The notes under the pieces: model-generated
What the model was told of the DNA's origin: nothing
The model's database searches: none
Seen by the model: the letters and a program-made list of their open reading frames with translations, nothing else
Made by a program: the position numbers and the translations under genes
Part shown: positions 12,405 to 28,445 of the stretch, piece after piece
Position numbering within the stretch: the stretch's first letter is position 1
How the letters are laid out: every line of letters begins with the position of its first letter
Assembly: GCF_007748075.1 (NCBI RefSeq)
Contig: NZ_CP036280.1
Span: forward strand, 1,800,001 to 1,832,000
From: Mucisphaera calidilacus
Lineage (GTDB): Bacteria > Planctomycetota > Phycisphaerae > Phycisphaerales > Phycisphaeraceae
Length of the DNA stretch: 32,000 nt
Direction of reading: 5' to 3'

Positions 12405-13433
12405 CTACCACAAATCCTCAGGATTCGTCGCGTTCAGGTCGAAGACCATCTCCTTGACAGAATCCGCCGAAGTCGCCTGTCCCGGACGTGTGCTACCACC
12501 CGATTTCAGAGCAGCATCAGCCGAACGCCGATCGCCTAACAGACCCGCTTCGCCTGCCTGGCCATCAGTGCCCAGATAGGCCAGCCGAGCGTCATCGAGA
12601 CTCGAATCACCCGCCGCGCCCGAAATCGGGTTGTTATCAACATGACCATCGACCCACAGAATCTGGATATTTCCGTTGTGCCGCGGATCAGCACGACCCG
12701 CATTCACCACCGTTATGTCACCATCCATCACGACGTGGGCACCCGCAAACTCACCGCTGGATTCGAGCGCCTCCTCCAGTTCCGAATCTTCCGCAAGCGG
12801 CGGATTATGATTGCGTACAGTCGTGGTCAGCAGCACATCAGTCGTCGAGGCCATATCGTCCGTGCTTGCAGGTAATGCGACCGGACCGCCGAAACGCTTC
12901 TCACCTGAGAAATACTTCTGGGCAACGGCGCTCACCTTCGTATAATGCGCCCCAATGTTCGAACCCACGTACACAAAATTGTACCCGTAGTGAATCCGAT
13001 TGAACCCGCGGTACGCCGCGTTGTCCGCCGCGTTCTCATCCTTCGCCTCGCCCGACTGGATCGAGAAATCCAGGATCCCCACGTGACCGTTATCCCAGGT
13101 CGGATCCAAATACACATCAACCGTCGGGATCACACCCAACTCAATCAGACGCGTCGTCCAGTACGACTGAATCGGCTCGAACATCGTGTCAGCACTCAAC
13201 CCGTTCTGCCACTTCGGGAAACGCATGTTGTTCCCCGCAGCATGGGCGTACATCCCCTGCCCGATCGAACGCTGGTTCGCCGCCGACTGCATCACGCGAG
13301 CCGTGCTCCGCGCCGCACCCAACGCGGGCAACAAGATCCCGATCAGCAAAGCGATGATCGAAATCACCACCAGCAACTCGATCAACGTAAACGCCCACAC
13401 ACGCCGTGCACGAGATTCCATGGAAAGCTCCAT
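12405..13433 (-). CDS. prepilin-type N-terminal cleavage/methylation domain protein with H-X9-DG C-terminal motif (DUF1559 family), paralog 1
   Basis: [29 protein letters not shown] pseudopilin leader/helix, then RHNGNIQILWVDGH (H-X9-DG). The start is either ATG 13433 (MELSMES) or ATG 13421 (MESRARR). The track start at 13487 is less likely. Confidence 0.85.
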   Translation of the reverse strand: MELSMESRARRVWAFTLIELLVVISIIALLIGILLPALGAARSTARVMQSAANQRSIGQGMYAHAAGNNMRFPKWQNGLSADTMFEPIQSYWTTRLIELGVIPTVDVYLDPTWDNGHVGILDFSIQSGEAKDENAADNAAYRGFNRIHYGYNFVYVGSNIGAHYTKVSAVAQKYFSGEKRFGGPVALPASTDDMASTTDVLLTTTVRNHNPPLAEDSELEEALESSGEFAGAHVVMDGDITVVNAGRADPRHNGNIQILWVDGHVDNNPISGAAGDSSLDDARLAYLGTDGQAGEAGLLGDRRSADAALKSGGSTRPGQATSADSVKEMVFDLNATNPEDLW

Positions 13434-13516
13434 CTCTGTTCTGCCCGAACCAAACAGGAACGCCGACCGATCACACCCTACCACCACGCGGACCGCACCG
13501 CCCTCAAACCATCAAC

Positions 13517-14530
13517 TCAGTCGCCGGGGTTCGCCGGCCAAAGGTCAAAGACGCACTGCTTCGGATCGCCCGCACCCGGACGGCCCGATCCCTTGTTGCC
13601 CGTGTAATTCTGCACCGTCGTCGCAGCACCCAATGCATCCTCCGAAAACGGTAGCTCAAAATCCGTCGGGTTCGCCGCCGCACCCGGAACGCTGATCGTC
13701 GAGACGTGACCGTCCGCCCAGCTGATCTGAACGCCACCGCTGTGCCGCGCATGCGGATAGGTCGCATGAGGCACATACACGGGATAGTCAATCACCACGT
13801 GGCCGCCGATCTCCTCGCCCTCGTCCTCCGATGCGTCCTTGTTACGCACCGTCGACGTCACCAGAACATCGCCCGTCGACGCCATGTCATCCACCGACAC
13901 AGGCGTCGAGGGGCTCGCACCCACGCGACCCGGCCATTTCGCACCCACGCGCGACGTCGATATCTCAGGCTCCGAAAGATTGCCACCCACCCAGACGTAG
14001 TTGTAGCCGAAGTGAATCCGGTTATAGGCGCGAGACGCCATGTTCCCGCTCCCGCTCTCCGCCGAACCACCCGGACGCCCGGGCCGAGGCGTACCACCGC
14101 TAGGCGAACTCGAATTCGCCGGCAGCGACGTGTCCAGCGCATACTTCAGAAAGTCATAGTTCGCGTCCCAACTCGGATCCTCATACATGTTCAGGTTCTG
14201 AAGGATCCCCTCACGCACCAGCAGCGTCGTCCAGTACCCCTGGATACTCCCGAACACCATCCCGTTCCACTCCGTCCCGTCAGCACGCGTGTACGTCGTG
14301 TTGTCCCACTGCCAGATCGGAAAACGGAAACCCTTCTCACTCGTCGCATAGACATACATGCCCTGCGCGATAGAACGCTGATTCGCACCCGCCTGCATGT
14401 ACTGCGCCGACTTCCGCGCCGCACCCAACGCAGGCAACAAGATCCCGATCAGCAACGCAATAATCGAAATCACCACCAGCAGCTCGATCAGCGTAAACGC
14501 AAAACCCGACGCACTCGGACGCTTCATCAC
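13517..14530 (-). CDS. prepilin-type N-terminal domain / H-X9-DG (DUF1559) protein, paralog 2
   Basis: [39 protein letters not shown], then [15 protein letters not shown]. The C-terminal tail is [12 protein letters not shown]. Confidence 0.9.
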
Positions 14531-14599
14531 ATCACTCCAATTGTCGCCACCACCCGATGACAGGACGCAAACCAGAGATGCAGGCCTTAAATCATCATA

Positions 14600-15619
14600 T
14601 CAGTCGCCGGGGTTCTGCGGCCACAAGTCAAACACATTCTGCGCACTCGTACCCGTAGTTCCACTACCCGGACGCCCGGACGGTGCCGAAGAACCGCCAT
14701 TGTTCTTGGTTCGCTTGGTTGTGCCCAGCGCCTCGTCCGCATAGGAAAGAGAGTAGTTCTCCGGCTCTTGCGCCGACCCCGGCACCTCAAGCCGGCTGTT
14801 GTGACCATCAGCCCAACTCACATAGAGACCTCCGCGGTGTCTTGCATGCCCCATACCCGCCCAAGGCACATCCTCCGTGTAATAGTCGGACACAACGTGA
14901 GCCCCAACCTCTTCACCGCTGCTGCGGGTGCGTGCAACATCGATCACGGGTGCTGTAATCAGTGTGTCTCCCGTCGATCGCATGTCGTCGATTGAAGCAG
15001 GTATATCATTGCGACCGATCGCGATGCGCTCGGGTGTTGCGGCACCATATCGCGCCTTACTTGAGGTATCGCCGTAATAGGCGTTTCCGTAGTTCGATCC
15101 CACCCAGAGATAGTTATAACCAAAGTGAATATCCACAAAATCGCGATCCCAGAGAGGAGCACCACCGTCGGGCGTGTTGTTGGACGTCTGGCCTGAGCCT
15201 CGCCCGCCGCTGCTTGTGTTGACCAACTCGTGTGAAGTCAACTGCTTGTTCTTGAAATTGTTGACAGCGTCAAACGATGGATCCTCATACGTCGAGAGAT
15301 CCTGAATGATCCCCTCCGCAGCCAACTTCGTCGACCAGAACCAACGGACCGGTTCCTGCATTCGATTCTCAGCAGCTCCGTCAGCCGTCTCGCCCCATTG
15401 CCAGAGAACGAATCGCATGTCGTTACTCGTCGCGTAGATGTAGTGTCCCTGTGCAATCGAACGAAGGTTGGCCGAAGCCTGCCCGAACCGCGCCGCATCA
15501 CGCGCCGCACCCAACGCGGGCAACAGGATCCCGATCAGCAACGCGATGATCGAAATCACCACCAGCAACTCGATCAGCGTAAATCCACGACGTCCATTTC
15601 GTTCATACATGATGCTCAC
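14600..15619 (-). CDS. prepilin-type N-terminal domain / H-X9-DG (DUF1559) protein, paralog 3
   Basis: [40 protein letters not shown] (canonical G/F cleavage context), then ARHRGGLYVSWADGH. The C-terminal tail is NVFDLWPQNPGD. GGAG lies 8 nt before the ATG. Confidence 0.9.
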   Translation of the reverse strand: MSIMYERNGRRGFTLIELLVVISIIALLIGILLPALGAARDAARFGQASANLRSIAQGHYIYATSNDMRFVLWQWGETADGAAENRMQEPVRWFWSTKLAAEGIIQDLSTYEDPSFDAVNNFKNKQLTSHELVNTSSGGRGSGQTSNNTPDGGAPLWDRDFVDIHFGYNYLWVGSNYGNAYYGDTSSKARYGAATPERIAIGRNDIPASIDDMRSTGDTLITAPVIDVARTRSSGEEVGAHVVSDYYTEDVPWAGMGHARHRGGLYVSWADGHNSRLEVPGSAQEPENYSLSYADEALGTTKRTKNNGGSSAPSGRPGSGTTGTSAQNVFDLWPQNPGD

Positions 15620-15720
15620 TCCACAGGAGGTAAACGCCTAATTCAAGACGCAGTAATGACTTTCAACGAATTACGGGTCTCCAGACCCGATCAAACGAAA
15701 GGTGAAACACAGGCTCTATA

Positions 15721-15749
15721 ATTATGAAACTCTGGGCCGCTTTTGGCAA
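15721..15749 (-). promoter_or_regulatory. possible sigma70-type promoter for the DUF1559 gene cluster
   Basis: On the minus strand: TTGCCA (15749-15744), a 17-nt spacer, then CATAAT (15726-15721), about 100 nt upstream of the paralog-3 ATG. This is a pattern match only. Confidence 0.3.
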
Positions 15750-15778
15750 CCCCTCTTACGTTTAAATCTCAATAATTT

Positions 15779-15787
15779 CCCCCCCCC
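15779..15787. repeat. homopolymeric C9/G9 tract
   Basis: Nine consecutive C on the + strand, in the AT-richer spacer between the hicB-like stop (15843) and the putative -35 element (15749). Confidence 0.9.
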
Positions 15788-15842
15788 AAACCTAACCCCA
15801 AAAACGGCTTAGCCATACCTCCCCGGATACACCCGCGCAACA

Positions 15843-16058
15843 TCAGGCCGCGATCGACGTCTCAAGATCGATAAACGCCCACACCGCCTCAGCATAAGAA
15901 GCATCCCCCGCAATCACCGACTCCACAGCCGACGCACGCGGAACCGACTGCCCCGCATCCAGAGCCGACAGCACCCACCCCTGGGCCGCCTCCTTCGCCA
16001 TCGCGATCACCTCCTCCAGATCATCGCCAAACGTATGGCAACCCGGAAGATCCGGCAC
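15843..16058 (-). CDS. hicB: HicB-family (UPF0150) antitoxin-like protein, apparently N-terminally truncated
   Basis: GTG-initiated 71 aa beginning (M/V)PDLPGCHTFGDDLEEVIAMAKEAAQGWV, the core PDLPGC-x-T-x-G-x-T/L-EE motif of HicB. The beta-strand that normally precedes it is missing from this frame. Confidence 0.55.
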   Translation of the reverse strand: MPDLPGCHTFGDDLEEVIAMAKEAAQGWVLSALDAGQSVPRASAVESVIAGDASYAEAVWAFIDLETSIAA

Positions 16059-16226
16059 GCCCGCCGGATCGCGACGTAGTAGCTCGACGTGGTGTACCGG
16101 TCACTGACGCTCCGCAGGGGATCGAGCACTCGGTTCGTCCCCACCCGGTTGACGCAGGAGAGCGGCGTCTTGCGGGCAGCACTGGCACGGCACGGTTTGA
16201 GACTTGCTGATTCTGCAGCGGTGGCT

Positions 16227-16652
16227 TCAAAAGAGGTCCTCCCCTGGCAGCGATGAGGCTTGCTGAATCCACTCGCCAAGAGCTTGATCGTCAATCTGTT
16301 CGCCTTCGGGAATGTGCAAGTAGCGGACGTGTTCGTGCTTCGACGACTCAGGCGGCATCGGATTGAGTTGGGAGCCGTTCAAGAACGTCACCTTGATGTA
16401 CTTCGTGAAGCAGTGATAGCTCAGAAACCAGCCTCTGCCTTCGACTCCGTAGAACGGCGAGTTCCATCGCACTGCCTTCCGAACGCCCGGCACCGTGGTG
16501 GTGACAAGTTCGTCGATCCGGCGGCCGACGGCCTGCTTCCACCCGGGCATCGCCGCGATGTACGCTTCCACCGGCGCGTCGCCATCACCCTTCGGGATCT
16601 GAGGGTTGCCGCCGGAGAGCAACTTGGGTTTCGGATCTTTCGCTTTGGCCAT
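16227..16652 (-). CDS. DUF1801 (YdhG-like) domain protein
   Basis: 141 aa with AYIAAMPGWKQAVGRRIDELVTTTVPGVRKAVRWNSPFYGVEGRGWFLSYHCFTKYIKVTF, the typical DUF1801 core. Confidence 0.7.
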   Translation of the reverse strand: MAKAKDPKPKLLSGGNPQIPKGDGDAPVEAYIAAMPGWKQAVGRRIDELVTTTVPGVRKAVRWNSPFYGVEGRGWFLSYHCFTKYIKVTFLNGSQLNPMPPESSKHEHVRYLHIPEGEQIDDQALGEWIQQASSLPGEDLF

Positions 16653-16666
16653 CTCGGTGCTCCGTG

Positions 16667-16974
16667 TTACGTGTGCAGGTTCTGAGTTCGAGTCACTGCA
16701 TTATGGCTGGCGTTGTAGAGGTACGCGCCGCCGTGCTCGCGGGCGTCGGTCTCGGACTGCTCGAACAGGCCCCAGTGGTACGGGACAACGTCTCGGAAGT
16801 GGCCGCGCTCGTTGATGACGCGGAGTCGGTCAGCGTGACAACGGCCTGGTCATAGCCAGATCGTTTTCGGTACGAGGGGGTCTTGGCGGTTTTTTTTGGC
16901 AGGGCGGTCGCTCCCGAACGCTGGAGCGCGGTGTAACACCGCACTGATTTGGGCGTTTCGGACTGCGCCGCCAA
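16667..16974 (-). pseudogene. possible frameshifted remnant of a tyrosine-integrase N-terminus next to tRNA-Ala
   Basis: Frame 1 (16974 downward) encodes ...KKTAKTPSYRKRSGYDQAVVTLTD. This resembles the PSYRxHxxSGQAVVTL N-terminal motif I recall from planctomycetal integrases. A second, start-less open frame (16849-16670, stop 16669-16667) encodes RVINERGHFRDVVPYHWGLFEQSETDAREHGGAYLYN with clear codon periodicity. No catalytic domain is present. The assignment is tentative. Confidence 0.3.
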
Positions 16975-17019
16975 GTGGCGGGTGCCCGCAAATTGCGGAC
17001 TCAGCCGTTTTTACGAAAA

Positions 17020-17092
17020 TGGAGCTGGACGGACTCGAACCGACGACATCCTGCTTGCAAAGCAGGCGCTCTCCCAACTGAGCTACAGCCCC
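17020..17092 (-). tRNA. tRNA-Ala (anticodon UGC)
   Basis: The reverse complement reads GGGGCTGTAGCTCAGTTGGGAGAGCGCCTGCTTTGCAAGCAGGATGTCGTCGGTTCGAGTCCGTCCAGCTCCA. It folds as a cloverleaf with the G3:U70 Ala identity pair, anticodon loop TT-TGC-AA and T-loop GGTTCGAGTCC. CCA is not encoded. Confidence 0.95.
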
Positions 17093-17149
17093 AAATTGTG
17101 ACATCTATTCTATCGTCAAATCACCACCCTGACGACCACACCGGCACGC

Positions 17150-18412
17150 CTAGCCCTTGTCGATCGTCAGAGGCGTCATCTTCTCCACCTGGCCCTGTGC
17201 GATCTTCTCAAAACCCGATCCCAGCTCGCCGATTGGGTCGGGCGGCAGGATCTCCACCACCTTCTCACCCAGCTTGACCTCCCCGCTCCGCACGCGGTCC
17301 TCGAACTTACGGCACTCCTCCAGCAGACGGTCCAGGATCTCCTCCTCCGGCACGTTCGCCACCTTCTGGCCCTGAACGTAAATGATCCCGCGACGGTCGC
17401 CCGCGAAAATCGCCACGTCCGCCCCCTCCGCCTCACCCGGCCCGTTGACGATGCAGCCCATCACCGCCACCTTGATCGGCAGCTCGATCTCCGCCGCCAG
17501 CTTCTCGCGAACCTCCTGCACCAGCGTGAACAGGTCCACCTGAATACGCCCGCATGTCGGACACGCGATCAGGTCCACACCCTTGCGCTCACGCAGCTCC
17601 AGGCAATAAAGCAGCTCCAGCCCGTCCTCCACCTCAAAAACCGGGTCGTTCGCGTAGCTGATCCGGATCGTGTCGCCGATCCCCGAAGCCAGCAGGTGGG
17701 CCAGCGGAGCCACGCTCCGGATCGCGCCCGTCTCCCGCGGCCCCGCGTGCGTCACGCCCAGGTGCAGCGGATGATCAAAACGCTTGCTGATCTCCGTGTA
17801 CGCGTCGATCACCAGCGTCGGGTCCGGGCTCTTCGCCGAGATCGTCACGTCATAAAAATCACGCTCGTAGAAGATCTCGAGGTACTCCTCGAGCTTCGCG
17901 ATCATGATCGCCAGGAAGTGCCCGTGCTTCGCCCCGGAGAAGACCCCGCCCAGCTCCTTCATCCGCTTCTGCTTGTCCCTGCGCTCGATGATCGAGCCCT
18001 CGTTCACCCCCACCCGGATCGGCAGCCCGCGCTCCTTGCAAGCGTCGATCACCTTCCCCACCTGCTCGCGGTCCTGAATATTGCCCGGGTTCAGCCGGAT
18101 CTTGTGCACCCCCGCCTCGATCGCCTCCAACGCCCGCTGGAAGTGAAAATGCACGTCCGCGACGATCGGCACCTTGACCTGCGGCAGGATCTCGGCCAGC
18201 GCCTCGGTGTCCTTCTTCTCAGGCACCGCGACGCGGACAATGTCCGCCCCCGCCGCCGCCAGCTTGTGGATCTCCGCCACGCACGCGTCCACGTCGTGGG
18301 TGTACCCCGAGGTCATCGTCTGCACGCTCACCGGTGCATCGCCGCCGATCGGCACCACGCCCACACGGTCATCACCCACCCGCACCTGCCTGGTCTTGCG
18401 TCGTTCGTTCAT
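17150..18412 (-). CDS. ispG: 4-hydroxy-3-methylbut-2-en-1-yl diphosphate synthase (flavodoxin)
   Basis: RKTRQVRVGDVxxGGDAPVSVQTMT, IVRVAVP, RLNPGN, VGVNxGS and CPTCGR...GCIVNGPGE are GcpE/IspG signatures. 420 aa with a C-terminal extension of about 45 aa. Confidence 0.95.
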   Translation of the reverse strand: MNERRKTRQVRVGDDRVGVVPIGGDAPVSVQTMTSGYTHDVDACVAEIHKLAAAGADIVRVAVPEKKDTEALAEILPQVKVPIVADVHFHFQRALEAIEAGVHKIRLNPGNIQDREQVGKVIDACKERGLPIRVGVNEGSIIERRDKQKRMKELGGVFSGAKHGHFLAIMIAKLEEYLEIFYERDFYDVTISAKSPDPTLVIDAYTEISKRFDHPLHLGVTHAGPRETGAIRSVAPLAHLLASGIGDTIRISYANDPVFEVEDGLELLYCLELRERKGVDLIACPTCGRIQVDLFTLVQEVREKLAAEIELPIKVAVMGCIVNGPGEAEGADVAIFAGDRRGIIYVQGQKVANVPEEEILDRLLEECRKFEDRVRSGEVKLGEKVVEILPPDPIGELGSGFEKIAQGQVEKMTPLTIDKG

Positions 18413-18452
18413 GCCTCGATTGTACGGGACATCCCGCGATCGGGTCTCATCC

Positions 18453-19190
18453 TCACGCCGCGTAGCCCATCGCCTCGAGCTCCCGCCCGAACAGGTCCTT
18501 GGCCAGCGCCCGCTGCCCCGCGGTCATCTCGTCGAGATACCGACCCGACGTCGCCTTGTTGAGCATCAGGTTCTGCTTCGTCGTGCCCTGTAGCTGACGC
18601 CGGTCGAACCGCGCCACGATCTCCGCCAACGCCCCGTCGTCCAGATCCAGCCCGAGGTGATCCGCCACCCGCCGCATCAGCAGCTCCGGCTCCACGAGCA
18701 TCTGCTCGTACCGGAGCATCAGCAACCCCTGCGTGCTCGACCACCTCTCCCACTCGGGGATATACAGCTCCGCCGCGTAGCGAAGCGCATCCTCCACCGT
18801 CCGCAGATCCTTCAGCTCGTGGCCGTGCCCCCCCGCCCGGGCACGCTCGCCGTGGTTCATCGCCGAGAGCGCCACGTCCCGCAGATCACGATAGATATAC
18901 GTGCCCCGCGCGGTGCCCACGGCCATCAGGGCTCGAAGCGACCGCGACGGCGCGAAGTGCGTCTTGCACAGCACCGCCTCGCCCATCGCGTGAGCCGGAA
19001 TGAGCCGCAGCAGCTTGCTCGGCGTCGCGTAGCTGATCTCGTTGGCCTTGCTCACCAGCACGCCATGCAGCCGGTAGCGGTCCCGGACTTCCTCCGCCGA
19101 CCGATAACCGTCTGCGACCAGCGCCGCGTCGGTCATGCTGTAGAGCCACGTGCTTCCGGACTTGGGCATGCTGCCGCTGATCACAATCAT
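18453..19190 (-). CDS. sulfotransferase-family protein
   Basis: MIVISGSMPKSGSTWLYS (5'-PSB PKSGSTW loop) and YIYRDLRDVALS (3'-PB-like). The ATG at 19190 is preferred because GGAGG lies just upstream. The track start is 19208. Confidence 0.75.
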   Translation of the reverse strand: MIVISGSMPKSGSTWLYSMTDAALVADGYRSAEEVRDRYRLHGVLVSKANEISYATPSKLLRLIPAHAMGEAVLCKTHFAPSRSLRALMAVGTARGTYIYRDLRDVALSAMNHGERARAGGHGHELKDLRTVEDALRYAAELYIPEWERWSSTQGLLMLRYEQMLVEPELLMRRVADHLGLDLDDGALAEIVARFDRRQLQGTTKQNLMLNKATSGRYLDEMTAGQRALAKDLFGRELEAMGYAA

Positions 19191-19305: not shown

Positions 19306-20346
19306 ATGTCCAAGCCCGAACTCTACCCCCTGCGTTTCCAGCCCATCTACAAGGAAAAAGTCTGGGGCGGCCGCACCCTCGAACGCCTGGGGCGCGACCT
19401 GCCCGGCGACGCGACGACGCTCATCGGCGAGTCGTGGGAGATCGCCGACCTCGCCCAGACCTCCGCGTCGGGTGGCGGCGGCAACCCCGAGCATTCCGTC
19501 ATCGTCAACGGCCCCCTCGCCGGCCAGCGCATCGATCAGGTCATCCGCGACTACACCTCCGAGCTGATGGGCTCGGTCGCCCCCTCCCCCGAGGGCGGCT
19601 TCCCGCTGCTGATCAAGTTCCTCGACGCCCGCGAGAACCTCTCGGTCCAGGTGCACCCCTCGCCCGAGTACGCGTCGAAACACCCCGACGCCCACCTCAA
19701 GTCGGAGGCTTGGTACATCCTCGACTGCGAACCCGGCGCGGTGATCTACAAGGGCGTCATGGAGGGCGTCACGCCCGAACGCTTCCGCCAGGCGATCGAG
19801 GACGACGCGGTCAGGGAACTGATGATCGAGATCCCGGTCAAGCCCGGCGACTGCCACTACCTGCCCTCGGGCACCTGCCACGCCCTCGGCCAGGGCGTGC
19901 TGGTCGCTGAGGTGCAGACCCCCTCGGACACCACCTTCCGCGTCTACGACTGGGGGCGGACCGGGCGCGAGCTGCACCTTGACCAGGCGATCGAGTGCAT
20001 CCACTTCGGCCCGGCAGAAACCTCAGCCTTCGAGAGCAAGGCCCCGGCGATCAAGCCGGATCAGGCGTCGACACACCGGCTGGTGTCCTGCGACTACTTC
20101 GGCATCGACCGCGTGCACGCGCCGGACGGTTTTGAAGACTCGATCGCGGAGACGAACCCGACGATCTGGATGATCCTCAGCGGCTCGGGGCGTTTCGAGG
20201 TCCCGGGGCAGGAGGCGTATGCCTTCGCCGCAGGTCAGACCTGGCTGGTGCCGCCCGACCTGGGAGACGGCTGGGCGATGGTGGAGCACGAAGCGACCTG
20301 GCTGGAGGTGACGTTCGGCAAGACCGAGCCGATCCGCATGGCCTGA
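19306..20346 (+). CDS. manA: class I mannose-6-phosphate isomerase
   Basis: The internal ATG at 19306 (MSKPELYPLRFQPIYKEKVWGG) begins a type I PMI. Motifs are GESWEIAD, FPLLIKFLDARENLSVQVHP, KSEAWYIL and PSGTCHALGQG. The upstream part of track ORF 19150 overlaps the sulfotransferase gene and is rejected. Confidence 0.85.
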   Translation: MSKPELYPLRFQPIYKEKVWGGRTLERLGRDLPGDATTLIGESWEIADLAQTSASGGGGNPEHSVIVNGPLAGQRIDQVIRDYTSELMGSVAPSPEGGFPLLIKFLDARENLSVQVHPSPEYASKHPDAHLKSEAWYILDCEPGAVIYKGVMEGVTPERFRQAIEDDAVRELMIEIPVKPGDCHYLPSGTCHALGQGVLVAEVQTPSDTTFRVYDWGRTGRELHLDQAIECIHFGPAETSAFESKAPAIKPDQASTHRLVSCDYFGIDRVHAPDGFEDSIAETNPTIWMILSGSGRFEVPGQEAYAFAAGQTWLVPPDLGDGWAMVEHEATWLEVTFGKTEPIRMA

Positions 20347-20386
20347 GTTGTTGCGGCTTGTCATGCAGGGGGCCTGAAGGCCGGTG

Positions 20387-20422
20387 TTGTGCGCTGAGAC
20401 GCAGGACATTCTGCGCGCACAG
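20387..20422. repeat. inverted repeat pair 1 of the TTGTGCGC box
   Basis: TTGTGCGC at 20387-20394 and GCGCACAG at 20415-20422. The 7-bp arms TGTGCGC/GCGCACA are separated by a 20-nt spacer. Confidence 0.9.
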
Positions 20423-20469
20423 GATGACAACTTTGCAGATTTTTACACTTTTTCCGGTCAGAATCGGGT

Positions 20470-20527
20470 CGTTTTCAAGCGTTTTGGGCTCGTTTTCGTT
20501 CGTTTTGGAGCGTTTTGGTCCAAAACG
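20470..20527 (+). repeat. five helically phased CGTTTT direct repeats ending in a perfect 8-bp-arm palindrome
   Basis: CGTTTT starts at 20470, 20480, 20491, 20501 and 20511 (spacing 10, 11, 10, 10). The last unit forms CGTTTTGG-T-CCAAAACG (20511-20527). Additional T5 tracts lie at 20440-20444 and 20449-20453, and TTTT at 20534-20537. Confidence 0.9.
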
Positions 20528-20549
20528 GGCCGATTTTCGGTCGCGGCGT

Positions 20550-20574
20550 GCGCACAAATACCGTCCTTGTGCGC
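20550..20574. repeat. inverted repeat pair 2 of the TTGTGCGC box
   Basis: GCGCACAA at 20550-20557 and TTGTGCGC at 20567-20574. Perfect 8-bp arms with a 9-nt spacer ATACCGTCC. Confidence 0.9.
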
Positions 20575-20615
20575 CAGGGGCGATGGACACGAAAATGAGT
20601 ACAGGTTGATGTTGA

Positions 20616-21233
20616 TCAGCGTCTGCAGAGGGTGGCGAGGCCGAGGAGCATGAGGGAGACGGCGGCGGGCTCGGGAATGATGTTCATGGTGACGTCGTCT
20701 AGAGAGCCATCAGCAGCAATGACAACGCGGAAGTAGTCGATGGTGCCGTTGATCTGCCACTGCCAGCCTTCTGTCTCTTGGTTGGTGGTGGGCGAGAGGA
20801 TGATCTCGATGCCCTCCTGCGTGATGGCACCGCCTTCGGTCGGGAAGTCGGACGCCAAGATGGTCAGCGCAGAGAGGGAATCATCTTTGGGACGGATAGA
20901 GAGGTATTCGACAGAGGTGGTGAAGCCGAGTGTGATCGCGCTGGCGGGCGTATCTTCACTGACAGAGGTGATGTTTAGCCAGGCAGTACCACCACCGGCT
21001 CGACCGGGATATACACGAAGCAACTGGCCAGCAGGATATTCATCAAGACCAAAAAATGGCTGGGATATACCACCATATGACGTCGTGAATGCGATACCGT
21101 CACTGGCAGCTTCACCTGCCACACCAAAACTACTGTCGAGAGGCAGGTTCTCGAAGCTGGTGGAGAGAACCTCGGCGGAGAGCGAGGTGGTGGCACAGAG
21201 CAGGAGAACGGGGGAGAGGTTGAGGAGGTTCAT
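20616..21233 (-). CDS. PEP-CTERM sorting-domain secreted protein
   Basis: N-terminal signal peptide MNLLNLSPVLLLCATTSLSAEV. The C-terminus IIPEPAAVSLMLLGLATLCRR has the PEP motif, a TM helix and a basic tail. Confidence 0.8.
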   Translation of the reverse strand: MNLLNLSPVLLLCATTSLSAEVLSTSFENLPLDSSFGVAGEAASDGIAFTTSYGGISQPFFGLDEYPAGQLLRVYPGRAGGGTAWLNITSVSEDTPASAITLGFTTSVEYLSIRPKDDSLSALTILASDFPTEGGAITQEGIEIILSPTTNQETEGWQWQINGTIDYFRVVIAADGSLDDVTMNIIPEPAAVSLMLLGLATLCRR

Positions 21234-21294
21234 GGGGTTACTTTCTATGCCATTGTTTATTATAAGTTAAGATTGCGTGCTGTGCCGAACTATC

Positions 21295-21429
21295 TCACTC
21301 GTAATTCGTGGCCAGAATAGATAGGTCCAAGAGGTCGGTCACATCATCACCATTAAAATCTCCGTCTGCCCGGCCGGTATCGGTTAAGTCATAGTTTGAG
21401 GTCGAGATCAAGAGGTCGAGCAGAGCCAC
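21295..21429 (-). other. orphan dockerin/EF-hand-like Ca-binding repeat coding remnant (44-codon frame, GTG start at best)
   Basis: My own translation gives VALLDLLISTSNYDLTDTGRADGDFNGDDVTDLLDLSILATNYE-stop. DFNGDDVTDLLD fits the D-x-N-x-D-x(6)-D dockerin-type loop. It overlaps the esterase stop in another frame and has no ATG. Confidence 0.3.
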
Positions 21430-22211
21430 CGCCTGAGGAAGGCGATGGCGAGGTCGATCCAGTTCTGGGCCTCGGGAATGGGTGGTCGCCCGCCTGCGCC
21501 GGTGGCGAGGCCGAGGCCGTGCGGCCCCTCGGGGTAGAGGTGGAGTTCGACGGGGACTTTGTGCTCGATGCAGGCGTTCGCGAACTGGATGGAATTGTCG
21601 ACGGGGACGGAGGCGTCGTCGACGGTATGCCAGAGGAAGGCGGGGCAGGTTTCGGGAGAGACCCGGAGCTGGGTGCTCATCTTCTGGAGCGTGGCTTCGT
21701 CGGGGTCGGGGCCGAGGAGGTTGGCTGCGCTGCCGTTGTGCCGGATGCTGCTGTGCATGTCGATGACGGGGTAGCCGAGGATGACGGCGTCGGGTCTTCC
21801 GGAGTGCTGCTGGCGGAGGTCGTCGTGGTCGGCGGACATCTGGTCGCCGAAGACGGCGGCGCTGGAGCAGAGGTGTCCGCCTGCGGAGAAGCCGAGCGCG
21901 GCGACGCGTGCAGGGTCGACGCCCCAGGTCCGGGCGTTGTGACGCATCATGCGGATGGCACGCTGGAGGTCGTTGAGGGGGTCGGGGTGCCGGCTGGGGC
22001 TGACGCGGTAGCGGAGGACGGCGGCGGCAAAACCGGCGTCGATGAGTTTCCGGGCGACGGGTTCGGCTTCGTGGTCGGCGTGGTCGCGGTACCCCCCTCC
22101 CGGGCAGATGACGACGGCGGGCCGGTTGGCGTCGGGCTGCGGGTCGACGAGGGTGAGATTGGGGAGGCCTTCGGGGATAGCGGGCCAGATGGGGAGGGTT
22201 TGGTTGGGCAT
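21408..22211 (-). CDS. alpha/beta-hydrolase fold esterase/lipase
   Basis: 267 aa with VVICPGGGY (oxyanion-hole region), the GFSAGGHL nucleophile elbow (GxSxG) and a C-terminal His region (YPEGPHGLG). Confidence 0.85.
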   Translation of the reverse strand: MPNQTLPIWPAIPEGLPNLTLVDPQPDANRPAVVICPGGGYRDHADHEAEPVARKLIDAGFAAAVLRYRVSPSRHPDPLNDLQRAIRMMRHNARTWGVDPARVAALGFSAGGHLCSSAAVFGDQMSADHDDLRQQHSGRPDAVILGYPVIDMHSSIRHNGSAANLLGPDPDEATLQKMSTQLRVSPETCPAFLWHTVDDASVPVDNSIQFANACIEHKVPVELHLYPEGPHGLGLATGAGGRPPIPEAQNWIDLAIAFLRRWLCSTS

Positions 22212-22259
22212 GGGGTGGCTTGGGAATTGCGTGCGAGATCGGAGTTGCGTGTCTGTGGA

Positions 22260-22958
22260 TCAGGCGTGGCGGTCTGGTTTTCGCGCGCGGACAATGTAGT
22301 TCTTAGGGAAGCCGTAGGCGGTGAACTGATGGCGCAGGTCGAGTCGTGAGAGCAGGCGGGAGGCGAGCAGGAACATGGGGCGGGCGCAGAGCGCGACGGG
22401 TGTCATGGCGTAGCCGATGAGTCCGCCGCCATAGTGCCTGGGAGCGAGCGGGAGGTAGGAGGCCATCATGTGGCACATGTAGCCGGAGGTGGCGAAGAAG
22501 CCTTCGAGCCAGTCGATGCTTTCGATCTCGTAACCGGCTTTTTCGAACATCTCGCGCATGGCGAACTGCGTGTAGCGGTAGAAGTCGTAAGGCTGCTCGT
22601 GTTCTTCGTAGAGGAAGGGTGCGGAAGCAAGGATCACGCCGCCGGGTTTGGTGACCCGGTTGAGTTCCCTGAGGACTTCGATGGGGTTGGGCAGGTGTTC
22701 GAGGACCTGGCTGAGGAGGACGTAGTCGTAGCGGTCGTTCTCGACGGGGATGTCGGCGAGGTCGCAGACGTGGGTTGATGCGGCGTAGGGTTTGTCGACC
22801 TTCTCGAAGTCGGCCGACTCGTAGTGGGTGTGCGTGAAGAGGTGAGCGTAGGGCCCGTTGCCTGAGCCCGCGTCGAGCATGATGGCGTTGTCGGGCATTT
22901 CCGCGGCGTAGGCCTCGATCGCTCGGAGCAGATTCACACGGGACGGATTGACGTTCAC
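22260..22958 (-). CDS. class I SAM-dependent methyltransferase
   Basis: Motif I LDAGSGNGPY, post-I DFEKV, YDYVLLSQVLEHLPNP and LNRVTKPGG (Methyltransf_11-like). Confidence 0.85.
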   Translation of the reverse strand: MNVNPSRVNLLRAIEAYAAEMPDNAIMLDAGSGNGPYAHLFTHTHYESADFEKVDKPYAASTHVCDLADIPVENDRYDYVLLSQVLEHLPNPIEVLRELNRVTKPGGVILASAPFLYEEHEQPYDFYRYTQFAMREMFEKAGYEIESIDWLEGFFATSGYMCHMMASYLPLAPRHYGGGLIGYAMTPVALCARPMFLLASRLLSRLDLRHQFTAYGFPKNYIVRARKPDRHA

Positions 22959-23060
22959 GCTGGCTTCCCTTCGTCCGGTTTCCGGCCTGGGGTTGCCATG
23001 GGCTTGACGCGGGCGTGGCCGGATTGCGGGCCATGATACTGATGAGCGGCCCGGGTGCGT

Positions 23061-24641
23061 TCAGGCGATGGTTTCTGCCAGCGTGCCGAACAGGCTGAGG
23101 GTGGTGGCGCGTTGGATGTCGACGTTGACAACGGTGCCGGTGAGCGCTTCGTCGCCGTCAAAAAGGACGATGAGGTCACCTCCGGTTCGGCCTGAGAGCT
23201 GGGTGACTTGCCGCGTGGCGGTGCTGGTGTCGGATTCCCAGCCGAGTTCGACCTGGTTCTGCTTCTTGATTTCCTTGCGGCTGGCGCCCTCGACGAAGAC
23301 GGAGACCGTCTTGCCGACGTATCTGGCGTGGACGCGTTGGGATGCCTCGGCCTGGGCCTCAAGGAGTTCGCGGTTGCGTCGTTTCTTGATGTCGTCGGGG
23401 ACGTCGTCTTCGAGGCGGTCGTAAGCGACGGTTCCGGGTCGTGGCGAGTACTTGAAGATGAAGCTGTTCTTGAAGTCGGCGGTACGGAGGAGGTCGACGG
23501 TTTTCCAGTGATCGTCTTCGGTTTCGCCGCAGAAGCCGGTGATGATGTCGGTGGCGATCTCGACGTCGGGGATGATGCGTCGTGCGCGTTGGAGGAGGTC
23601 GCGGTACTGGTCGATGGTGTAGCCGCGGTTCATGGCCTTGAGCTGTGCGTCGGACCCGGACTGGACGGGGAGGTGGAGGTATCGGCAGATACGTGGGCAG
23701 TCGCGGATGGTCTCGAGGATATCGTCGCCGAAGTCACGGGGGAAGGAGGTGACGAAGCGGAGCCGCTGGAGCTCGGGGACGTTGTCGTGGATGAGTCGGA
23801 GCAGTTGTGCGAAGGAGGTGACGTCATCGGCGAAGACGGGCGAGGGCCCGCCGGTGCCTCGGTTGGGTGCGATGACGGAGCCGACCTGGGGCTGGGTGAC
23901 GCCTTCGACGGTGACGGCGGCGGCGTTGTCGTAGTGGTAGTGGTTGACGGTCTGTCCGAGGAGGGTGACCTCGACGGCTCCGGCGTCGACGAGCTTGCGG
24001 ACCTCGTCGAGGATGGCCTGAGGCGGTCGGTGGACTTCCTGCCCGCGTGTGAAGGGGACGACGCAGTAGGTGCAGTACTTGTTGCAGCCGCGTGTGATGC
24101 GGACGTAGGCGGAGTGTCCGTCGCGTTCGGGCGAGAAGGACCGGGCGAGGTCGATCATCTCGAGGGAGTCGCGTGCGGCCTGGAGGGTGGAGGCGCGTCG
24201 CTGGTTGTCGCCCTGGAGCGCGACCTGGGCGCTGCGGAGTCCGCCGCGGTCGTTGACCCGGGTTCGGAGGACGTTATCGATGAGGAGGGGGACCTTGTCG
24301 AGTTCGGAGGGCCCGCACATGAGGTCGACCTGGGGGTGCTTGCGGACGAGGTCGGTGCCGTCGCGTTCGGCCATGCACCCGATGACGCCGAGGACGAGGT
24401 CGGGCCGCGTGTCGCGTTTGTAGTCGCCCAGGATCCCGACGCGTGACCAGACCTTCTGCTCGGCGTGTTCGCGGACGGAGCAGGTGTTGTAGAGGACGAC
24501 GTCGGCGTCCTGCCATCGGTCGGTGAATCGGTAGCCGAGTCCCCGGAGCTGTCCGGCGACGAGTTCGGTGTCGAGGACGTTCATCTGGCAGCCGAAGGTC
24601 TCGATGAAGACCGCGGGTTGTTGCGGATTGGGTTGTTGCAT
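23061..24641 (-). CDS. miaB: tRNA-2-methylthio-N6-dimethylallyladenosine synthase (radical SAM methylthiotransferase)
   Basis: FIETFGCQMNVLDTE (MTTase N-domain), the radical-SAM cluster motif GCNKYCTYCVVP and a C-terminal TRAM-like domain. 526 aa. Confidence 0.9.
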   Translation of the reverse strand: MQQPNPQQPAVFIETFGCQMNVLDTELVAGQLRGLGYRFTDRWQDADVVLYNTCSVREHAEQKVWSRVGILGDYKRDTRPDLVLGVIGCMAERDGTDLVRKHPQVDLMCGPSELDKVPLLIDNVLRTRVNDRGGLRSAQVALQGDNQRRASTLQAARDSLEMIDLARSFSPERDGHSAYVRITRGCNKYCTYCVVPFTRGQEVHRPPQAILDEVRKLVDAGAVEVTLLGQTVNHYHYDNAAAVTVEGVTQPQVGSVIAPNRGTGGPSPVFADDVTSFAQLLRLIHDNVPELQRLRFVTSFPRDFGDDILETIRDCPRICRYLHLPVQSGSDAQLKAMNRGYTIDQYRDLLQRARRIIPDVEIATDIITGFCGETEDDHWKTVDLLRTADFKNSFIFKYSPRPGTVAYDRLEDDVPDDIKKRRNRELLEAQAEASQRVHARYVGKTVSVFVEGASRKEIKKQNQVELGWESDTSTATRQVTQLSGRTGGDLIVLFDGDEALTGTVVNVDIQRATTLSLFGTLAETIA

Positions 24642-24713
24642 GGGATCGCACAGGATAGCAGAGGGTGTGGCGTGGATTGGTCTGTCGGCGTGGTGTTAGC
24701 CGATGGATGGGTT

Positions 24714-25244
24714 ATGGATGCTGTGCGCGCCGAGCGAGGCCCGAATCCGATTGCGTTGCTGACCAGTTGGCTGGTGCTGGTCGCGGGCCTGACGCTGATC
24801 GGGACGCTGGTGCTGGGGCCGGACCTGGATCGTGCGGAGCTGGCCGAGGCGCGGACGTGTGTGCTGGAGCAGCGTCTGGACTGGTGGGAGCGTCGGGCGG
24901 GAGCGCACGAGGATTTTCTGGTGGCGTTGCGGGCGGATGACCCCCTGGTGCTGGAGCACCTGGCGCTGACGGAGCTGAATCGGATCGTGCGAGGCAAGCG
25001 GCTGTACGACGAGCGGGTGACGTTCGTCGCACCGAACCCGGCGGTGCTGGGGCACCTGGGCGGGTGGCTGGATGATGCGGCGGGCCCGCTGACGACGGCG
25101 GCGATTTCGGCGCCGCGTCGTGGTTACCTGGACGGGTTGTCGTCGTGGAAGCGTGTGGGGTTGCTGGTGGCAGGGTCGCTGTTCGTGGTGGCGGGGATTT
25201 TGTGGAATCCTCAGGGCGATCGCGGCGTGAATCAGAGCACATAG
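24714..25244 (+). CDS. hypothetical membrane protein (two predicted TM helices)
   Basis: ATG 24714 (MDAVRAERGPNPIALLTSWLVLVAGLTLIGTLVL...). The codon third positions are NNG/NNT, like other + strand genes in this half. The upstream part of track ORF 24465 overlaps miaB and is rejected. Confidence 0.5.
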   Translation: MDAVRAERGPNPIALLTSWLVLVAGLTLIGTLVLGPDLDRAELAEARTCVLEQRLDWWERRAGAHEDFLVALRADDPLVLEHLALTELNRIVRGKRLYDERVTFVAPNPAVLGHLGGWLDDAAGPLTTAAISAPRRGYLDGLSSWKRVGLLVAGSLFVVAGILWNPQGDRGVNQST

Positions 25245-25292
25245 ATCCGGAGCGGGGCTGTGGGGCCTTGAGGCGTGCTGTCTTGGCGAGCG

Positions 25293-25697
25293 TTATTCGG
25301 GGTTCTTGGCGTGGTGTTCGAGCCAGCTGGGGTATCCGCCTCGGAAGTCGTAGACGTCGTTGTATTCGTAGGCGAGGAGTCGTTTGACGACGGCGGGCAC
25401 GCGGTCGTCTTTCCATCCGCTGCCGTAGACGATGATGACGTCGGCGTCGGTGAGTTGGGGGTCGAAGCGCTGGACGTCCTGGAGGGGGAGGTGGCGTGCG
25501 TTGGGGAGGTGTCCGGCCTCGAATTCGGCCTGGGTGCGTACGTCGACGAGGACGGGGTCGTCGTGCTTGTCGAGGTCGCGGAGGACGGTCTTGACGCTGA
25601 CGACACGGAGGTCGCGGTCGCTGATGCCCGATGAGCAGCCGACGAGTGCCGTGGCGAGGAGGATGAGGGCAGCGTTAAGCCAGTTCGAGGTCTTCAT
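25293..25697 (-). CDS. rhodanese-homology-domain lipoprotein (catalytic Cys apparently absent)
   Basis: MKTSNWLNAALILLATALVGCSS is a signal peptide plus lipobox. The rhodanese fold is marked by VLVDVRTQAEFEAGHLPNARHLP...IIVYGSGWKDDR...FRGGYPSW, with Gly at the active-site Cys position. Only the last 134 aa of track ORF 25293-26663 are used. Confidence 0.8.
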   Translation of the reverse strand: MKTSNWLNAALILLATALVGCSSGISDRDLRVVSVKTVLRDLDKHDDPVLVDVRTQAEFEAGHLPNARHLPLQDVQRFDPQLTDADVIIVYGSGWKDDRVPAVVKRLLAYEYNDVYDFRGGYPSWLEHHAKNPE

Positions 25698-26775
25698 AGA
25701 TCGCTCCGAGGGTTCGGTGGACGCGTTCCTGGTGTACGGGTTCGCCTGGCGTTCCGTTCCAGAGGATAACGATGGCGATGCCGTGGGCGGGGTCGGCGAA
25801 GGCGGCGGAGGACTGGTTGCCGGAGTGTCCGAAGGCGTAGTGGCTGGCGTGGGGCCCGTAGCCGTAGGGCACGACCTCCTTGCCGTAGTCCTTGGAGTCG
25901 AGGATGAATCCGAGTCCCCAGTCCATGTTGGCCTTGAAGGTGTGGTCGAAGAGGTTGACGCGGTGTCGTGCGGTGAAGAGCTGGATGGTTTCGGGTTCGA
26001 GGATGCGTTGTCCGTCGAGTTCGCCACCGTCGCAGAGAGCCCGGTAGAAGCGGACGAACTGGACGGCGGGCCCGCAGCCGTTGCTGGCGGGCGAGCATCC
26101 GGTGAGGAAGGGTTTGCCGGTCCAGTCGCGTGGGGGCGCGTCTCTGCGTGCGGTGTCGGGGACGATGCCGATGCGGTCGGCGTTCTGGTCGTAGACGTCC
26201 TCGGGCATGCCGATCCAGCAGTCGTCCATCCTGAGAGGTTCAAAGATGTGGCTTCGGACGAAGTCGGGGTAGGTCTGTCCGCTGACGCGTTGGACGATCT
26301 CGCCGAGGATGAACCAGCTGGTGGTGATGTGGTAGCCGGCTTTCTCGCCCGGGGTCCAGTCGGGTTCGCGTTTTGATTCGTAGATGGTGTTGAGGATGGT
26401 CTGCCAGTCGTCGCGTGGGAATTCGTAGGGCGCGGCGCGGAAGCCGCCGGTGTGGGTGAGGATGTGGCGTGTGGTGACGCGTTGCTTGCCGTGGGTGGCG
26501 AATTCGGGGATGACGGAGGCGACGGGTGCGTCGAGGTCGATGCGTCCGAGTTCCCAGAGCTGAGCGATGGCGACGGCGGCGATGGCCTTGGTGGCGGAGA
26601 GCCAGGGGAGGATGGTGTTGCGGGCCATGTGCTGCCCGGGGCGCATCTCGCCGTAGCATGCACAGTGTGAGATGGTTCCTTCGAAGGAGATGGCGATCTG
26701 CGCGCCGAGGTGCTGTCCCCGTTCGATCCCGGCTTCGACCAGTTGCCCGGCTCGCCCCAGTGAGGTTTCGAGCAT
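25675..26775 (-). CDS. beta-lactamase-family serine hydrolase (class C/EstB-like, PBP-like)
   Basis: The start ATG 26775-26773 overlaps the nuoF stop (ATGA). SATK (SxxK) lies in LPWLSATKAIAAVAI, with FGHSGNQSS (HxG) near the C-terminus. The 3' end overlaps the rhodanese gene start by 23 nt. Confidence 0.85.
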   Translation of the reverse strand: MLETSLGRAGQLVEAGIERGQHLGAQIAISFEGTISHCACYGEMRPGQHMARNTILPWLSATKAIAAVAIAQLWELGRIDLDAPVASVIPEFATHGKQRVTTRHILTHTGGFRAAPYEFPRDDWQTILNTIYESKREPDWTPGEKAGYHITTSWFILGEIVQRVSGQTYPDFVRSHIFEPLRMDDCWIGMPEDVYDQNADRIGIVPDTARRDAPPRDWTGKPFLTGCSPASNGCGPAVQFVRFYRALCDGGELDGQRILEPETIQLFTARHRVNLFDHTFKANMDWGLGFILDSKDYGKEVVPYGYGPHASHYAFGHSGNQSSAAFADPAHGIAIVILWNGTPGEPVHQERVHRTLGAIYEDLELA

Positions 26776-28148: not shown

Positions 28149-28188
28149 GTCGTTTCTCTCGTGACAAAAGACCTTGAGGCCTGAGAGT

Positions 28189-28434: not shown

Positions 28435-28445
28435 GTTGGGTCTCG

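Follow-up and report, generated by a model that had tools for sequence, protein, structure and literature searches.

Short repeats in non-coding bacterial DNA are described from several systems: the I-shaped intrinsic terminators of high-GC bacteria, which have no U-tract, the repetitive extragenic palindromes (REP) and bacterial interspersed mosaic elements (BIME), the chromosomal origin (oriC) with its DnaA boxes and AT-rich tandem 13-mers, iteron arrays and centromeres with a 10-11-bp period such as parC of plasmid R1, and intrinsically bent DNA. Here we compare with them a 269-bp spacer of Mucisphaera calidilacus Pan265 (Phycisphaerae, Planctomycetota), which occupies positions 20347-20615 of the analysed 32-kb stretch of DNA (hereafter called "the window"), between manA and a gene for a PEP-CTERM sorting-domain protein. 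We tentatively favour the reading—held at somewhat less than even confidence—that the spacer is a lineage-specific composite transcript-end region, which is shared by the two converging genes and contains a phased T-tract minisatellite. The closest relative used for comparison is represented by Logan contig L133 (5056 bp) from the run ERR15087775; coordinates in this and other contigs follow the contig label.

The spacer shares with I-shaped terminators and REP/BIME elements the position between 3′ ends, the GC-rich inverted repeats in non-coding DNA, and an inverted repeat that keeps a constant distance to a stop codon while its loop varies. As in REP/BIME, one short palindromic unit is reused in both orientations. 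However, the spacer hairpins lack the U-tract that directly follows the stem-loop of a Rho-independent terminator; REPs occur in hundreds of copies, whereas the spacer element has no dispersed copies in the window or in ~190 kb of DNA from relatives; and, unlike in either system, the hairpins are separated by a long phased tandem array. The resemblance to oriC consists in the location near the cumulative GC-skew minimum of the window, the higher AT content, the tandem short repeats, and the 8-9-mers in both orientations. In contrast to oriC, the spacer has no cluster of DnaA boxes, its array is flanked by the boxes instead of lying at one edge, dnaA and dnaN are not nearby, and the spacer does not follow the skew switch in relatives.

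Type II plasmid centromeres and bent DNA are built from phased direct repeats with a 10-11-bp period. Like iteron arrays and parC, the spacer has helically phased direct repeats of ~21 bp with inverted repeats flanking them, but no rep or parMR genes adjoin it, it bears no likeness to the plasmids of PLSDB or to phages, and its unit is poorly conserved between close species. An iteron array comprises at least three direct repeats of 17-22 bp beside a rep gene, while the spacer has ~2-4 units of 21 bp and no rep. As in intrinsically bent DNA, T4-T5 tracts recur on one strand each 10.4 bp over ~100 bp, in both species; such tracts usually lie upstream of promoters, whereas the spacer array is downstream of both genes.

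An earlier interpretation made from the letters alone (the sequence-only reading) had named a dispersed REP-like family as an outcome that would speak against it. No such family appeared in the DNA searched: the 32-kb window and the relatives' loci hold no further copies, and the other TGTGCGC 7-mers lie inside genes and do not form hairpins. The loose pattern CGTTTTN{4,5}CGTTTTN{4,5}CGTTTT, when scanned against a genome collection, occurs at at least 120 loci across all phyla, and the arrays listed, none of them from Mucisphaera, are not at skew switches.

Architecture of the spacer

The principal features in and beside the spacer are as follows.

19306-20346, + strand: manA, type I phosphomannose isomerase, left flank (QDU71587.1)
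19750-20350, no strand: middle of the region in which the GC/TA skew turns from minus to plus, with the cumulative G-C minimum at 20123
20347-20615, no strand: non-coding spacer, from the manA stop to the PEP-CTERM gene stop (gene calls and sequence reading)
20387-20394, + strand: box 1, TTGTGCGC, exact; identical in the orthologue (L133:3222-3229)
20415-20422, - strand: box 2, one-mismatch reverse copy GCGCACAg; pairs with box 1 as hairpin 1 (inverted repeat I4)
20430-20439, + strand: conserved 10-mer ACTTTGCAGA, 10/10 identical in the orthologue, with diverged flanks
20438-20537, + strand: phased T-tract array, with degenerate T5 units, five CGTTTT (20470-20516), one inverted copy, and one CGATTTT
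20501-20527, + strand: stem-loop/palindrome region, where CGTTTTGGA (20501-09) pairs with TCCAAAACG (20519-27); inverted repeats I7 and I14
20550-20574, no strand: hairpin 2, formed by box 3 GCGCACAA (20550-57) and box 4 TTGTGCGC (20567-74) around a 9-nt loop; inverted repeat I1
20591-20615, no strand: conserved right end of the spacer, directly 3′ of the PEP-CTERM stop
20616-21233, - strand: PEP-CTERM sorting-domain protein gene, right flank (QDU71588.1)

The spacer motifs are confirmed to be real and non-random, far above chance. The five CGTTTT copies start on the + strand at 20470, 20480, 20491, 20501, and 20511, precisely where the sequence-only reading had placed them, and an additional inverted copy is present at 20522-20527. 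The T5 tracts (20440-44 and 20449-53), the TTTT tract (20534-37), and the perfect palindrome CGTTTTGG-T-CCAAAACG (20511-20527) were likewise found, as were all four boxes: two exact forward copies (20387 and 20567), one exact reverse copy (20550), and the one-mismatch reverse copy (20415). The proposed phasing by the helical turn is borne out by the periodicity of the T/A-tracts, which peaks at 10.4 bp with a power of 2.79, as compared to a shuffle maximum of 0.86. The mirror symmetry that had been described for the box pairs is looser: the pairs do flank the array, but the left one lies ~94 bp and the right one ~64 bp from its centre.

The window contains three exact copies of TTGTGCGC, all inside the spacer (expected, 1.19 per window and ~0.01 per 269 bp), and 6 of its 18 CGTTTT copies, against an expectation of 7.1 for the whole window, are also there. 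Tandem Repeats Finder (TRF) reports a period of 10 (4.8 copies) and a higher-scoring period of 21 (1.9 copies). The basic repeat is better described as a 21-bp unit composed of two 10-11-bp half-units, which corrects the earlier description.

The flanking genes converge on the spacer, as had been noted, with manA on the + strand and the PEP-CTERM gene on the - strand. The manA product is 100% identical to the M. calidilacus type I phosphomannose isomerase, and the PEP-CTERM protein has 205 amino acids with the PEP-CTERM anchor at its end. The two accessions are consecutive, and GenBank has no annotation between them. In agreement with the sequence-only reading, the spacer is richer in AT than the DNA around it (GC 0.55-0.56 versus 0.64-0.70).

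The open reading frames (ORFs) of the spacer also proved non-coding, as that reading had suspected. A Pfam search with their translations gave no match, and many of the indels relative to the orthologous spacer are not multiples of three, so that no reading frame is conserved. A small protein on either strand was considered and rejected, since the frame is lost at boxes 3 and 4; the peptide motifs TLQxFT and FxFVxERFG appear conserved because the T-rich repeat DNA encodes them. Rfam 15 yielded no family match in the spacer at the gathering score or at E values up to 10, the sole matches being two miRNA models (E = 2.9 and 3.7) far under the gathering score. ARAGORN detected no tRNA in the spacer, and blastn in "distant" mode against the PLSDB plasmids and GenBank phages returned only chance matches of 27-56 bp.

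Conservation in the closest relative

The ManA of L133 (L133:2142-3182) clusters at ≥90% with that of M. calidilacus, and the genes have 81% nucleotide identity. The orthologous spacer of 267 bp (L133:3183-3449) lies between manA and the PEP-CTERM orthologue; the two species with the PEP-CTERM gene both carry it linked to the spacer. The overall spacer identity is 66% with many indels, under the neutral third-codon identity of 71-76% between the two organisms, and the spacer is thus non-coding and not uniformly constrained. The relatives whose ManA proteins are 79-80% identical have no such spacer after manA.

Within the diverged spacer, boxes 1, 3, and 4, the 10-mer ACTTTGCAGA, and the last 26 bp form conserved islands. 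Three of the four boxes are exact in L133, and box 2 is more degenerate there (GCGCTCAG). Boxes 1 and 4 are 180 bp apart in M. calidilacus and 179 bp apart in L133, while box 3 is displaced by 13 bp relative to box 1. At the right end, 25 of the 26 non-coding positions (20590-20615) are identical, and blastn aligns 20591-20666 with L133:3425-3500 at 96% identity.

The array has the same orientation and the same 10.4-bp phase in both species, while its unit sequences and copy details differ: the L133 units read CGTTGC, CGTTTA, CGTTTT, CGTTTT, CGGAAT, CGTTTT, CGAAAT, and GATTTT. The palindrome has changed symmetrically in L133, from GG..CC to CG..CG. Since the phase is kept while the unit sequences and numbers differ, and since the spacer identity is below neutral, we regard the array as minisatellite-like.

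RNA structure and transcript ends

The case for the suggested structured non-coding RNA is weak: one hairpin is well conserved, but Rfam offers no match and the two-species consensus fold is weak (-30 and -21 kcal/mol, versus -98 and -78 for the single sequences). The whole-spacer single-sequence fold has z scores of -1.44 on the + strand and -2.77 on the - strand. Hairpin 2 is predicted to be the one robust structure of the spacer. In M. calidilacus, it has an 8-bp stem and a 9-nt loop (-18.7 kcal/mol, z = -2.0); in the relative, it has an 11-bp stem and a 17-nt loop, with 21 nt between the 8-mers (-20.8 kcal/mol, z = -5.2). Its start on the - strand lies 42 nt beyond the PEP-CTERM stop in M. 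calidilacus and 41 nt beyond it in the relative. A dimeric DNA-binding site needs a fixed spacing of its half-sites. The variable loop and stem of hairpin 2, together with the maintained distance from the stop, thus suit a 3′ stem-loop on the PEP-CTERM transcript more than they suit a dimeric protein site.

Hairpin 1 is no more stable than shuffled sequences (for M. calidilacus, z = -1.17; for the relative, z = +1.67). The palindrome stem-loop on the + strand reaches -20 kcal/mol with z = -3.6 in M. calidilacus and z = +0.29 in the relative. RNAalifold suggested compensatory pairs at the palindrome, but the local fold in the relative is no better than shuffles, and a conserved terminator at this position was therefore rejected. 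A terminator scanner marked three terminator-like sites on the + strand at 20453-20533, with U-runs of only 4 nt. In addition, a promoter-like sequence, TTGTGC-N18-GAAAAT (20567-20596), spans box 4 and the right end, is kept in both species, and is aimed into the 3′ end of the PEP-CTERM gene. This sequence was found by eye, and its hexamers match the consensus at 4/6 positions each, under the threshold of the scanner.

The strand-skew switch

On the + strand, the GC skew is -0.2 to -0.39 over positions 1-19000 (about -0.28) and +0.19 to +0.28 over 20000-32000 (about +0.25), regardless of gene strand, and the AT/TA skew changes sign together with it. At 20123, 224 bp left of the spacer, the cumulative G-C curve has its minimum, and the best two-segment change point lies there as well. 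The transition spans ~2 kb across a sulfotransferase gene and manA, and the zero crossing falls within manA, ~250-350 bp left of the spacer. The spacer is the sole non-coding stretch of ≥100 bp within ~1 kb of the switch.

The GC skew at third codon positions (GC3 skew), read on the + strand, is -0.54 to -0.68 in + genes and -0.10 to -0.45 in - genes left of the switch, and +0.40 to +0.72 in the native genes right of it. In manA it is -0.18 overall, moving from -0.27 at the 5′ end to +0.16 at the 3′ end, and in the PEP-CTERM gene it is +0.52. The CGTTTT motif tracks the skew: left of the switch, 8 of 10 copies are on the - strand, and right of it all are on the + strand except the palindrome partner. 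The array is thus compositionally part of the right-hand regime.

The change from minus to plus is of the origin type. The tRNA-Ala, rpsF-ssb-rplI, and gyrA genes are on the G-rich strand in these genomes, which gives no reason to assume a reversed polarity. In Planctomycetes, ~50% of the genes are on the leading strand on average (PMC4613354), and the gene-strand bias is thus uninformative for the distinction between origin and terminus.

DnaA boxes do not cluster in the window: TTWTNCACA with ≤1 mismatch matches 7 times in the 32 kb, as compared to 11.25 expected. One weak match, TTTTACACT at 20441, lies in the spacer. The TTGTGCGC box is not a canonical DnaA box, as the sequence-only reading had acknowledged; TTGTGCGCA differs from TTATCCACA by three mismatches that include conserved positions. 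The recombinase or dif site proposed by the same reading found no backing, since dif-like matches are no better than the window background: the dif sites from E. coli, B. subtilis, and Frankia match 12-15 of 28 positions at best within 19700-20700, and 16-17 window-wide.

Switches and the manA locus in relatives

In the L133 organism, the skew is positive throughout the contig, including the upstream sulfotransferase gene and manA (GC3 skew +0.45). The orthologous spacer is flanked by the same skew sign on both sides, and it is therefore not an origin in the closest relative; the replication fork would run straight across it. In the same sample, an origin-polarity switch was found between a folK cluster and a block of 165-aa ORF, rhodanese, and nuo genes (L134:4500-9000), beside an IS1595 transposase gene.

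Two distant relatives (ManA 79-80% identical) keep the gene order gcpE-manA...miaB, and none of the spacer motifs occurs at the manA loci of L001 and L002/L003. The metagenome-assembled genome (MAG) of L002/L003 switches from minus to plus between manA and miaB, an interval with just two non-coding stretches, of 19 and 44 bp. Mucisphaera sp. (L001) has a uniform skew of -0.3 to -0.5 over the same genes, with neither the spacer nor a switch at the junction. The spacer and the skew switch are thus separable: L133 has the spacer without the switch, L002/L003 the switch without the spacer, and Mucisphaera sp. neither. The proposal of an origin-like element finds unexpected support in its place at a very strong origin-polarity GC/TA-skew change, but the lack of a DnaA-box cluster, the decoupling of switch and spacer in relatives, and the presence of two such switches on a related contig speak against it.

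The switch of Mucisphaera sp. lies ~25 kb further (L124:3000-6000), between a 133-aa gene and rpsD, by an inverted nuo block, and a second origin-polarity switch lies at folK (L135:9000-12000), 1.1 Mb away on the same contig. The two are at ~2.519 Mb and 0.375 Mb of the 3.25-Mb contig, and each is gradual over ~3 kb. Two switches of origin polarity on one contig imply at least four switches in the chromosome, or an assembly problem. Another MAG (L136/L137) has its folK-region switch 3 kb more to the right, as a sharp change inside a 50-bp spacer (L136:13100-13350; L137:5000-5300), which cannot be a classical oriC. Across three genomes, the folK-region switch is conserved but adjoins different genes: it precedes folK in Mucisphaera sp. 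(L135:10000-10500) and follows a 483/487-aa gene in the L136/L137 MAG and the ERR15087775 organism. The switch positions drift by kilobases among relatives while the gene order stays, and the four switch regions compared share no common sequence. A 30-bp core of the spacer was aligned with the Mucisphaera sp. switch (L124:3956-3972, two palindrome mismatches), but this match is borderline: it scores 28, with shuffles at 18.9 ± 2.2 and a maximum of 29. When CGKTTTGGNNCAAAACGGGNCG was sought in metagenomes, 8 unrelated soil contigs matched, and viral sequences had no match; the shared core was dropped.

Orthologous genes have opposite coding-strand GC3 skews in different genomes: -0.63 versus +0.64 for miaB (window 23061-24641 versus L001:11587-13197), -0.61 versus +0.38 for nuoF (window 26775-28148 versus L124:10001-11371), whose proteins cluster at 90% identity, and -0.83 versus +0.45 for manA between genomes. 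In manA of M. calidilacus and L133 (-0.18 versus +0.45), 75 of the 155 third-position differences are C to G. An inversion cannot alter the coding-strand skew, and these opposite values therefore indicate that the skew re-equilibrates fast and reports the present replication direction.

Neighbouring genes and repeats elsewhere

The next genes to the right of the PEP-CTERM gene are the following.

21408-22211, - strand: alpha/beta hydrolase gene
22260-22958, - strand: S-adenosylmethionine (SAM) methyltransferase gene

The adjacent genes (PEP-CTERM protein, alpha/beta hydrolase, methyltransferase, and MiaB) include no rep, par, replication, partition, recombination, or recombinase gene. The manA-miaB junction is variable: M. 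calidilacus has the PEP-CTERM, hydrolase, and methyltransferase genes there (20616-23060), and the relatives have ORF133/136 and PIN/Phd. The variable DNA of the relatives covers L001:11041-11586 and L002:11038-12128, one with a PIN/PhdYeFM pair. Its 133-136-aa ORF (L001:11041-11442, L002:11038-11448) begins at an ATGA that overlaps the manA stop, has a GC content of ~0.50 in genomes of ~0.64, is conserved, and belongs to no Pfam family. In the window, a tRNA-Ala(TGC) gene (17019-17093) adjoins gcpE; beside tRNA-Ala, one MAG (L002:1-8500) carries an inserted island with an integrase gene and a type I restriction-modification system.

Further repeats were noted in other DNA. Unrelated Planctomycetota and Anaerolineales MAGs share, at or near contig ends, an element that is almost identical among them and consists of gttaagataggtaaggcaaaacgcgc followed by CCGTTTTTGT-type repeats (L089:7840-8000, L116:1-160, L006:3770-3990, and the first ~300 nt of L094 on the - strand); it may be the origin or terminus of a plasmid or phage. 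Sedimentisphaerales and Planctomycetales MAGs have tandem GGGTTCGTTTT arrays of 11-bp period, more than one to a genome (L043:770-900, L112:3160-3220, and L115 on the - strand, ~3420-3470), and those of L043 are just upstream of promoter-like TTGACA/TATAAT pairs. Furthermore, a 21-bp tandem repeat in the folK gene of the ERR15087775 organism (L134:10350-10410), which encodes AKRLEND/AKRTKND, has CGTTTT units each 10-11 bp.

Discussion

How might a spacer of this composition arise and work? We propose that the ancestor shared by M. calidilacus and the closest relative known acquired it along with the PEP-CTERM gene. The GC-rich stem-loop of boxes 3 and 4 would act as a terminator or 3′-end protector of the PEP-CTERM transcript, and hairpin 1, the U-rich repeat tract, and the stem-loop downstream of manA may make the 3′ end of the manA transcript. 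Between them lies the fast-evolving 21-bp tandem repeat, whose T-tracts, spaced each 10.4 bp, should curve the DNA and ease its melting. The T-rich repeats are on the G+T-rich strand, as would be expected right of the switch. The spacer probably lies at the switch by virtue of an old switch location at the manA-miaB junction, which gathers foreign DNA, and would not be the cause of the switch.

Several observations weigh against this transcript-end model. It does not explain why the same 8-mer appears in all four stem arms, nor would it explain the conservation of box 1, ACTTTGCAGA, and the last 26 bp; the retention of three of the four boxes as exact copies has a p value of about 0.003 at 74% neutral identity. 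The outer-box distance of 179/180 bp and the 10.4-bp phase are more in keeping with a DNA-level nucleoprotein complex than with a transcript end. No hairpin has a proper U-tract—the best is a U4 inside the loop of a second small hairpin, and hairpin 2 has none—and neither hairpin 1 nor the palindrome hairpin is significantly stable in the relative. The two-species consensus fold is weak as well. Finally, the location within ~350 bp of the skew switch amounts to a coincidence of ~3% in the window if the two are unrelated.

The proximity to the switch invites the view that the spacer is all or part of an active chromosomal origin, in which the TTGTGCGC boxes would be non-canonical initiator sites and the CGTTTT array an unwinding or bending element. 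We consider this unlikely. The skew flips from about -0.28 to +0.25 with origin polarity at 20123, and TA skew flips too; the GC3 skew jumps from -0.18 in manA to +0.52 in the PEP-CTERM gene, the tRNA-Ala, rpsF-ssb-rplI, and gyrA genes have the normal polarity, no other non-coding stretch of such length is near, and the AT-richer DNA has tandem repeats and four boxes in both orientations, which are kept in the closest relative. Against this stand the absence of a DnaA-box cluster from the window, the uniform skew around the orthologous spacer, the switch at the same junction in L002/L003 with its 19- and 44-bp spacers, the sharp L136 switch in 50 bp, the two origin-polarity switches on one related contig, the drift of the switches over constant gene order, the lack of a common sequence among switch regions, and the zero crossing inside manA rather than in the spacer. 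A variant of this view, in which Mucisphaera chromosomes have two or more non-canonical initiation sites that lack DnaA boxes and the CGTTTT array with the TTGTGCGC boxes forms one such module, appears quite improbable. The opposite assignment, a replication terminus with a dif/Xer-type resolution site or a fork trap of opposed boxes, would suit the converging genes, the junction as a hot spot of variable DNA, and switch positions that float among relatives as fork-meeting points can. We nevertheless consider it highly improbable: the polarity is of the origin type, with G and T in excess rightward, tRNA and ribosomal-protein genes are on the G-rich strand, nothing resembling the 28-bp 11-6-11 dif site is present (14-15/28 versus a background best of 16-17), and an inverted-box spacing of 9 versus 21 nt is incompatible with a recombinase core. 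We know of no replication origin or dif site that has been defined in Planctomycetes. A phylum-wide dif prediction failed in this group (PMC3025954).

A DNA-level nucleoprotein site that is not an origin, in which a sequence-specific protein would bind the four TTGTGCGC boxes and the bent array would draw them together, is an alternative that we rate as unlikely, like the origin; it could serve for a repression or insulation loop between the converging genes, as a centromere-like or origin-proximal organising site, or as an invertible switch. The 8-mer conserved in all arms, the outer-box distance, and the phase speak for this site and for the origin alike. It would account for the identity of three of the four boxes at 26% neutral divergence, the outer-box distance of 180 versus 179 bp, and the phase that stays while the unit sequences drift. 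However, the change of the box 3-4 spacing from 9 to 21 nt and the 13-bp shift of box 3 against box 1 are hard to reconcile with a fixed complex, box 2 has decayed in the relative, the adjacent genes include no regulator, par, or recombinase gene, the identical array orientation in both species shows no sign of inversion, and the ~190 kb of related DNA contains no further box copies save isolated 7-mers within genes. We give still less credence to a decayed, functionless remnant of a folK-like gene or of PEP-CTERM-associated foreign DNA, with the 21-bp unit amplified by slippage. FolK of the ERR15087775 organism matches the - strand of the spacer in tblastn at 23-25 bits (shuffles, 15 ± 1.9), its in-frame 21-bp repeat is identical at 24 of 27 positions to a unit of the orthologous spacer in the same sample, and the overall spacer divergence is at or above the neutral rate. 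In contrast, the Pfam HPPK model gives no match on the spacer translation, and conservation of the boxes, the 10-mer, and the right end exceeds the neutral expectation. Moreover, the KR-rich repeat is absent from the FolK of M. calidilacus (QDU72155.1, 568 genes from ManA) and of the more distant relatives, so that the similarity rests on the repeat of one species. A folK pseudogene as the main explanation was thus rejected, on account of the missing HPPK match, the frame-breaking indels, and the limitation of the similarity to a species-specific 21-bp repeat; we treat the likeness as shared slippage-prone T-rich sequence or ectopic conversion, and not as proof of a pseudogene. A small or antisense RNA, with a candidate start at TTGTGC-N18-GAAAAT that reads into the PEP-CTERM 3′ end, is very unlikely. 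Its hexamers and their 18-nt spacing are kept while the intervening sequence varies (12/18 identical), the next 25 nt are near-identical between the species, and the - strand fold has z = -2.77, but Rfam has no match, the hexamers are sub-threshold, the consensus structure is weak, and no terminator is evident downstream.

The transcript-end region with its phased minisatellite thus remains our tentative preference for the spacer. The skew behaviour of the clade is more surprising than the spacer. The typical GC skew is about 0.025 (SkewDB, PMC8941118), as compared to a GC3 skew of about ±0.6 here, and the asymmetry is among the strongest known to us. Should the spacer be an origin, that origin would lack DnaA boxes, and if multiple non-canonical initiation sites were true, these planctomycetes would replicate from several or loosely defined origins. 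If the spacer is not an origin, the skew behaviour of the clade matters more: it is extreme and quick to re-equilibrate, and its switches are mobile, with two of them on one contig.

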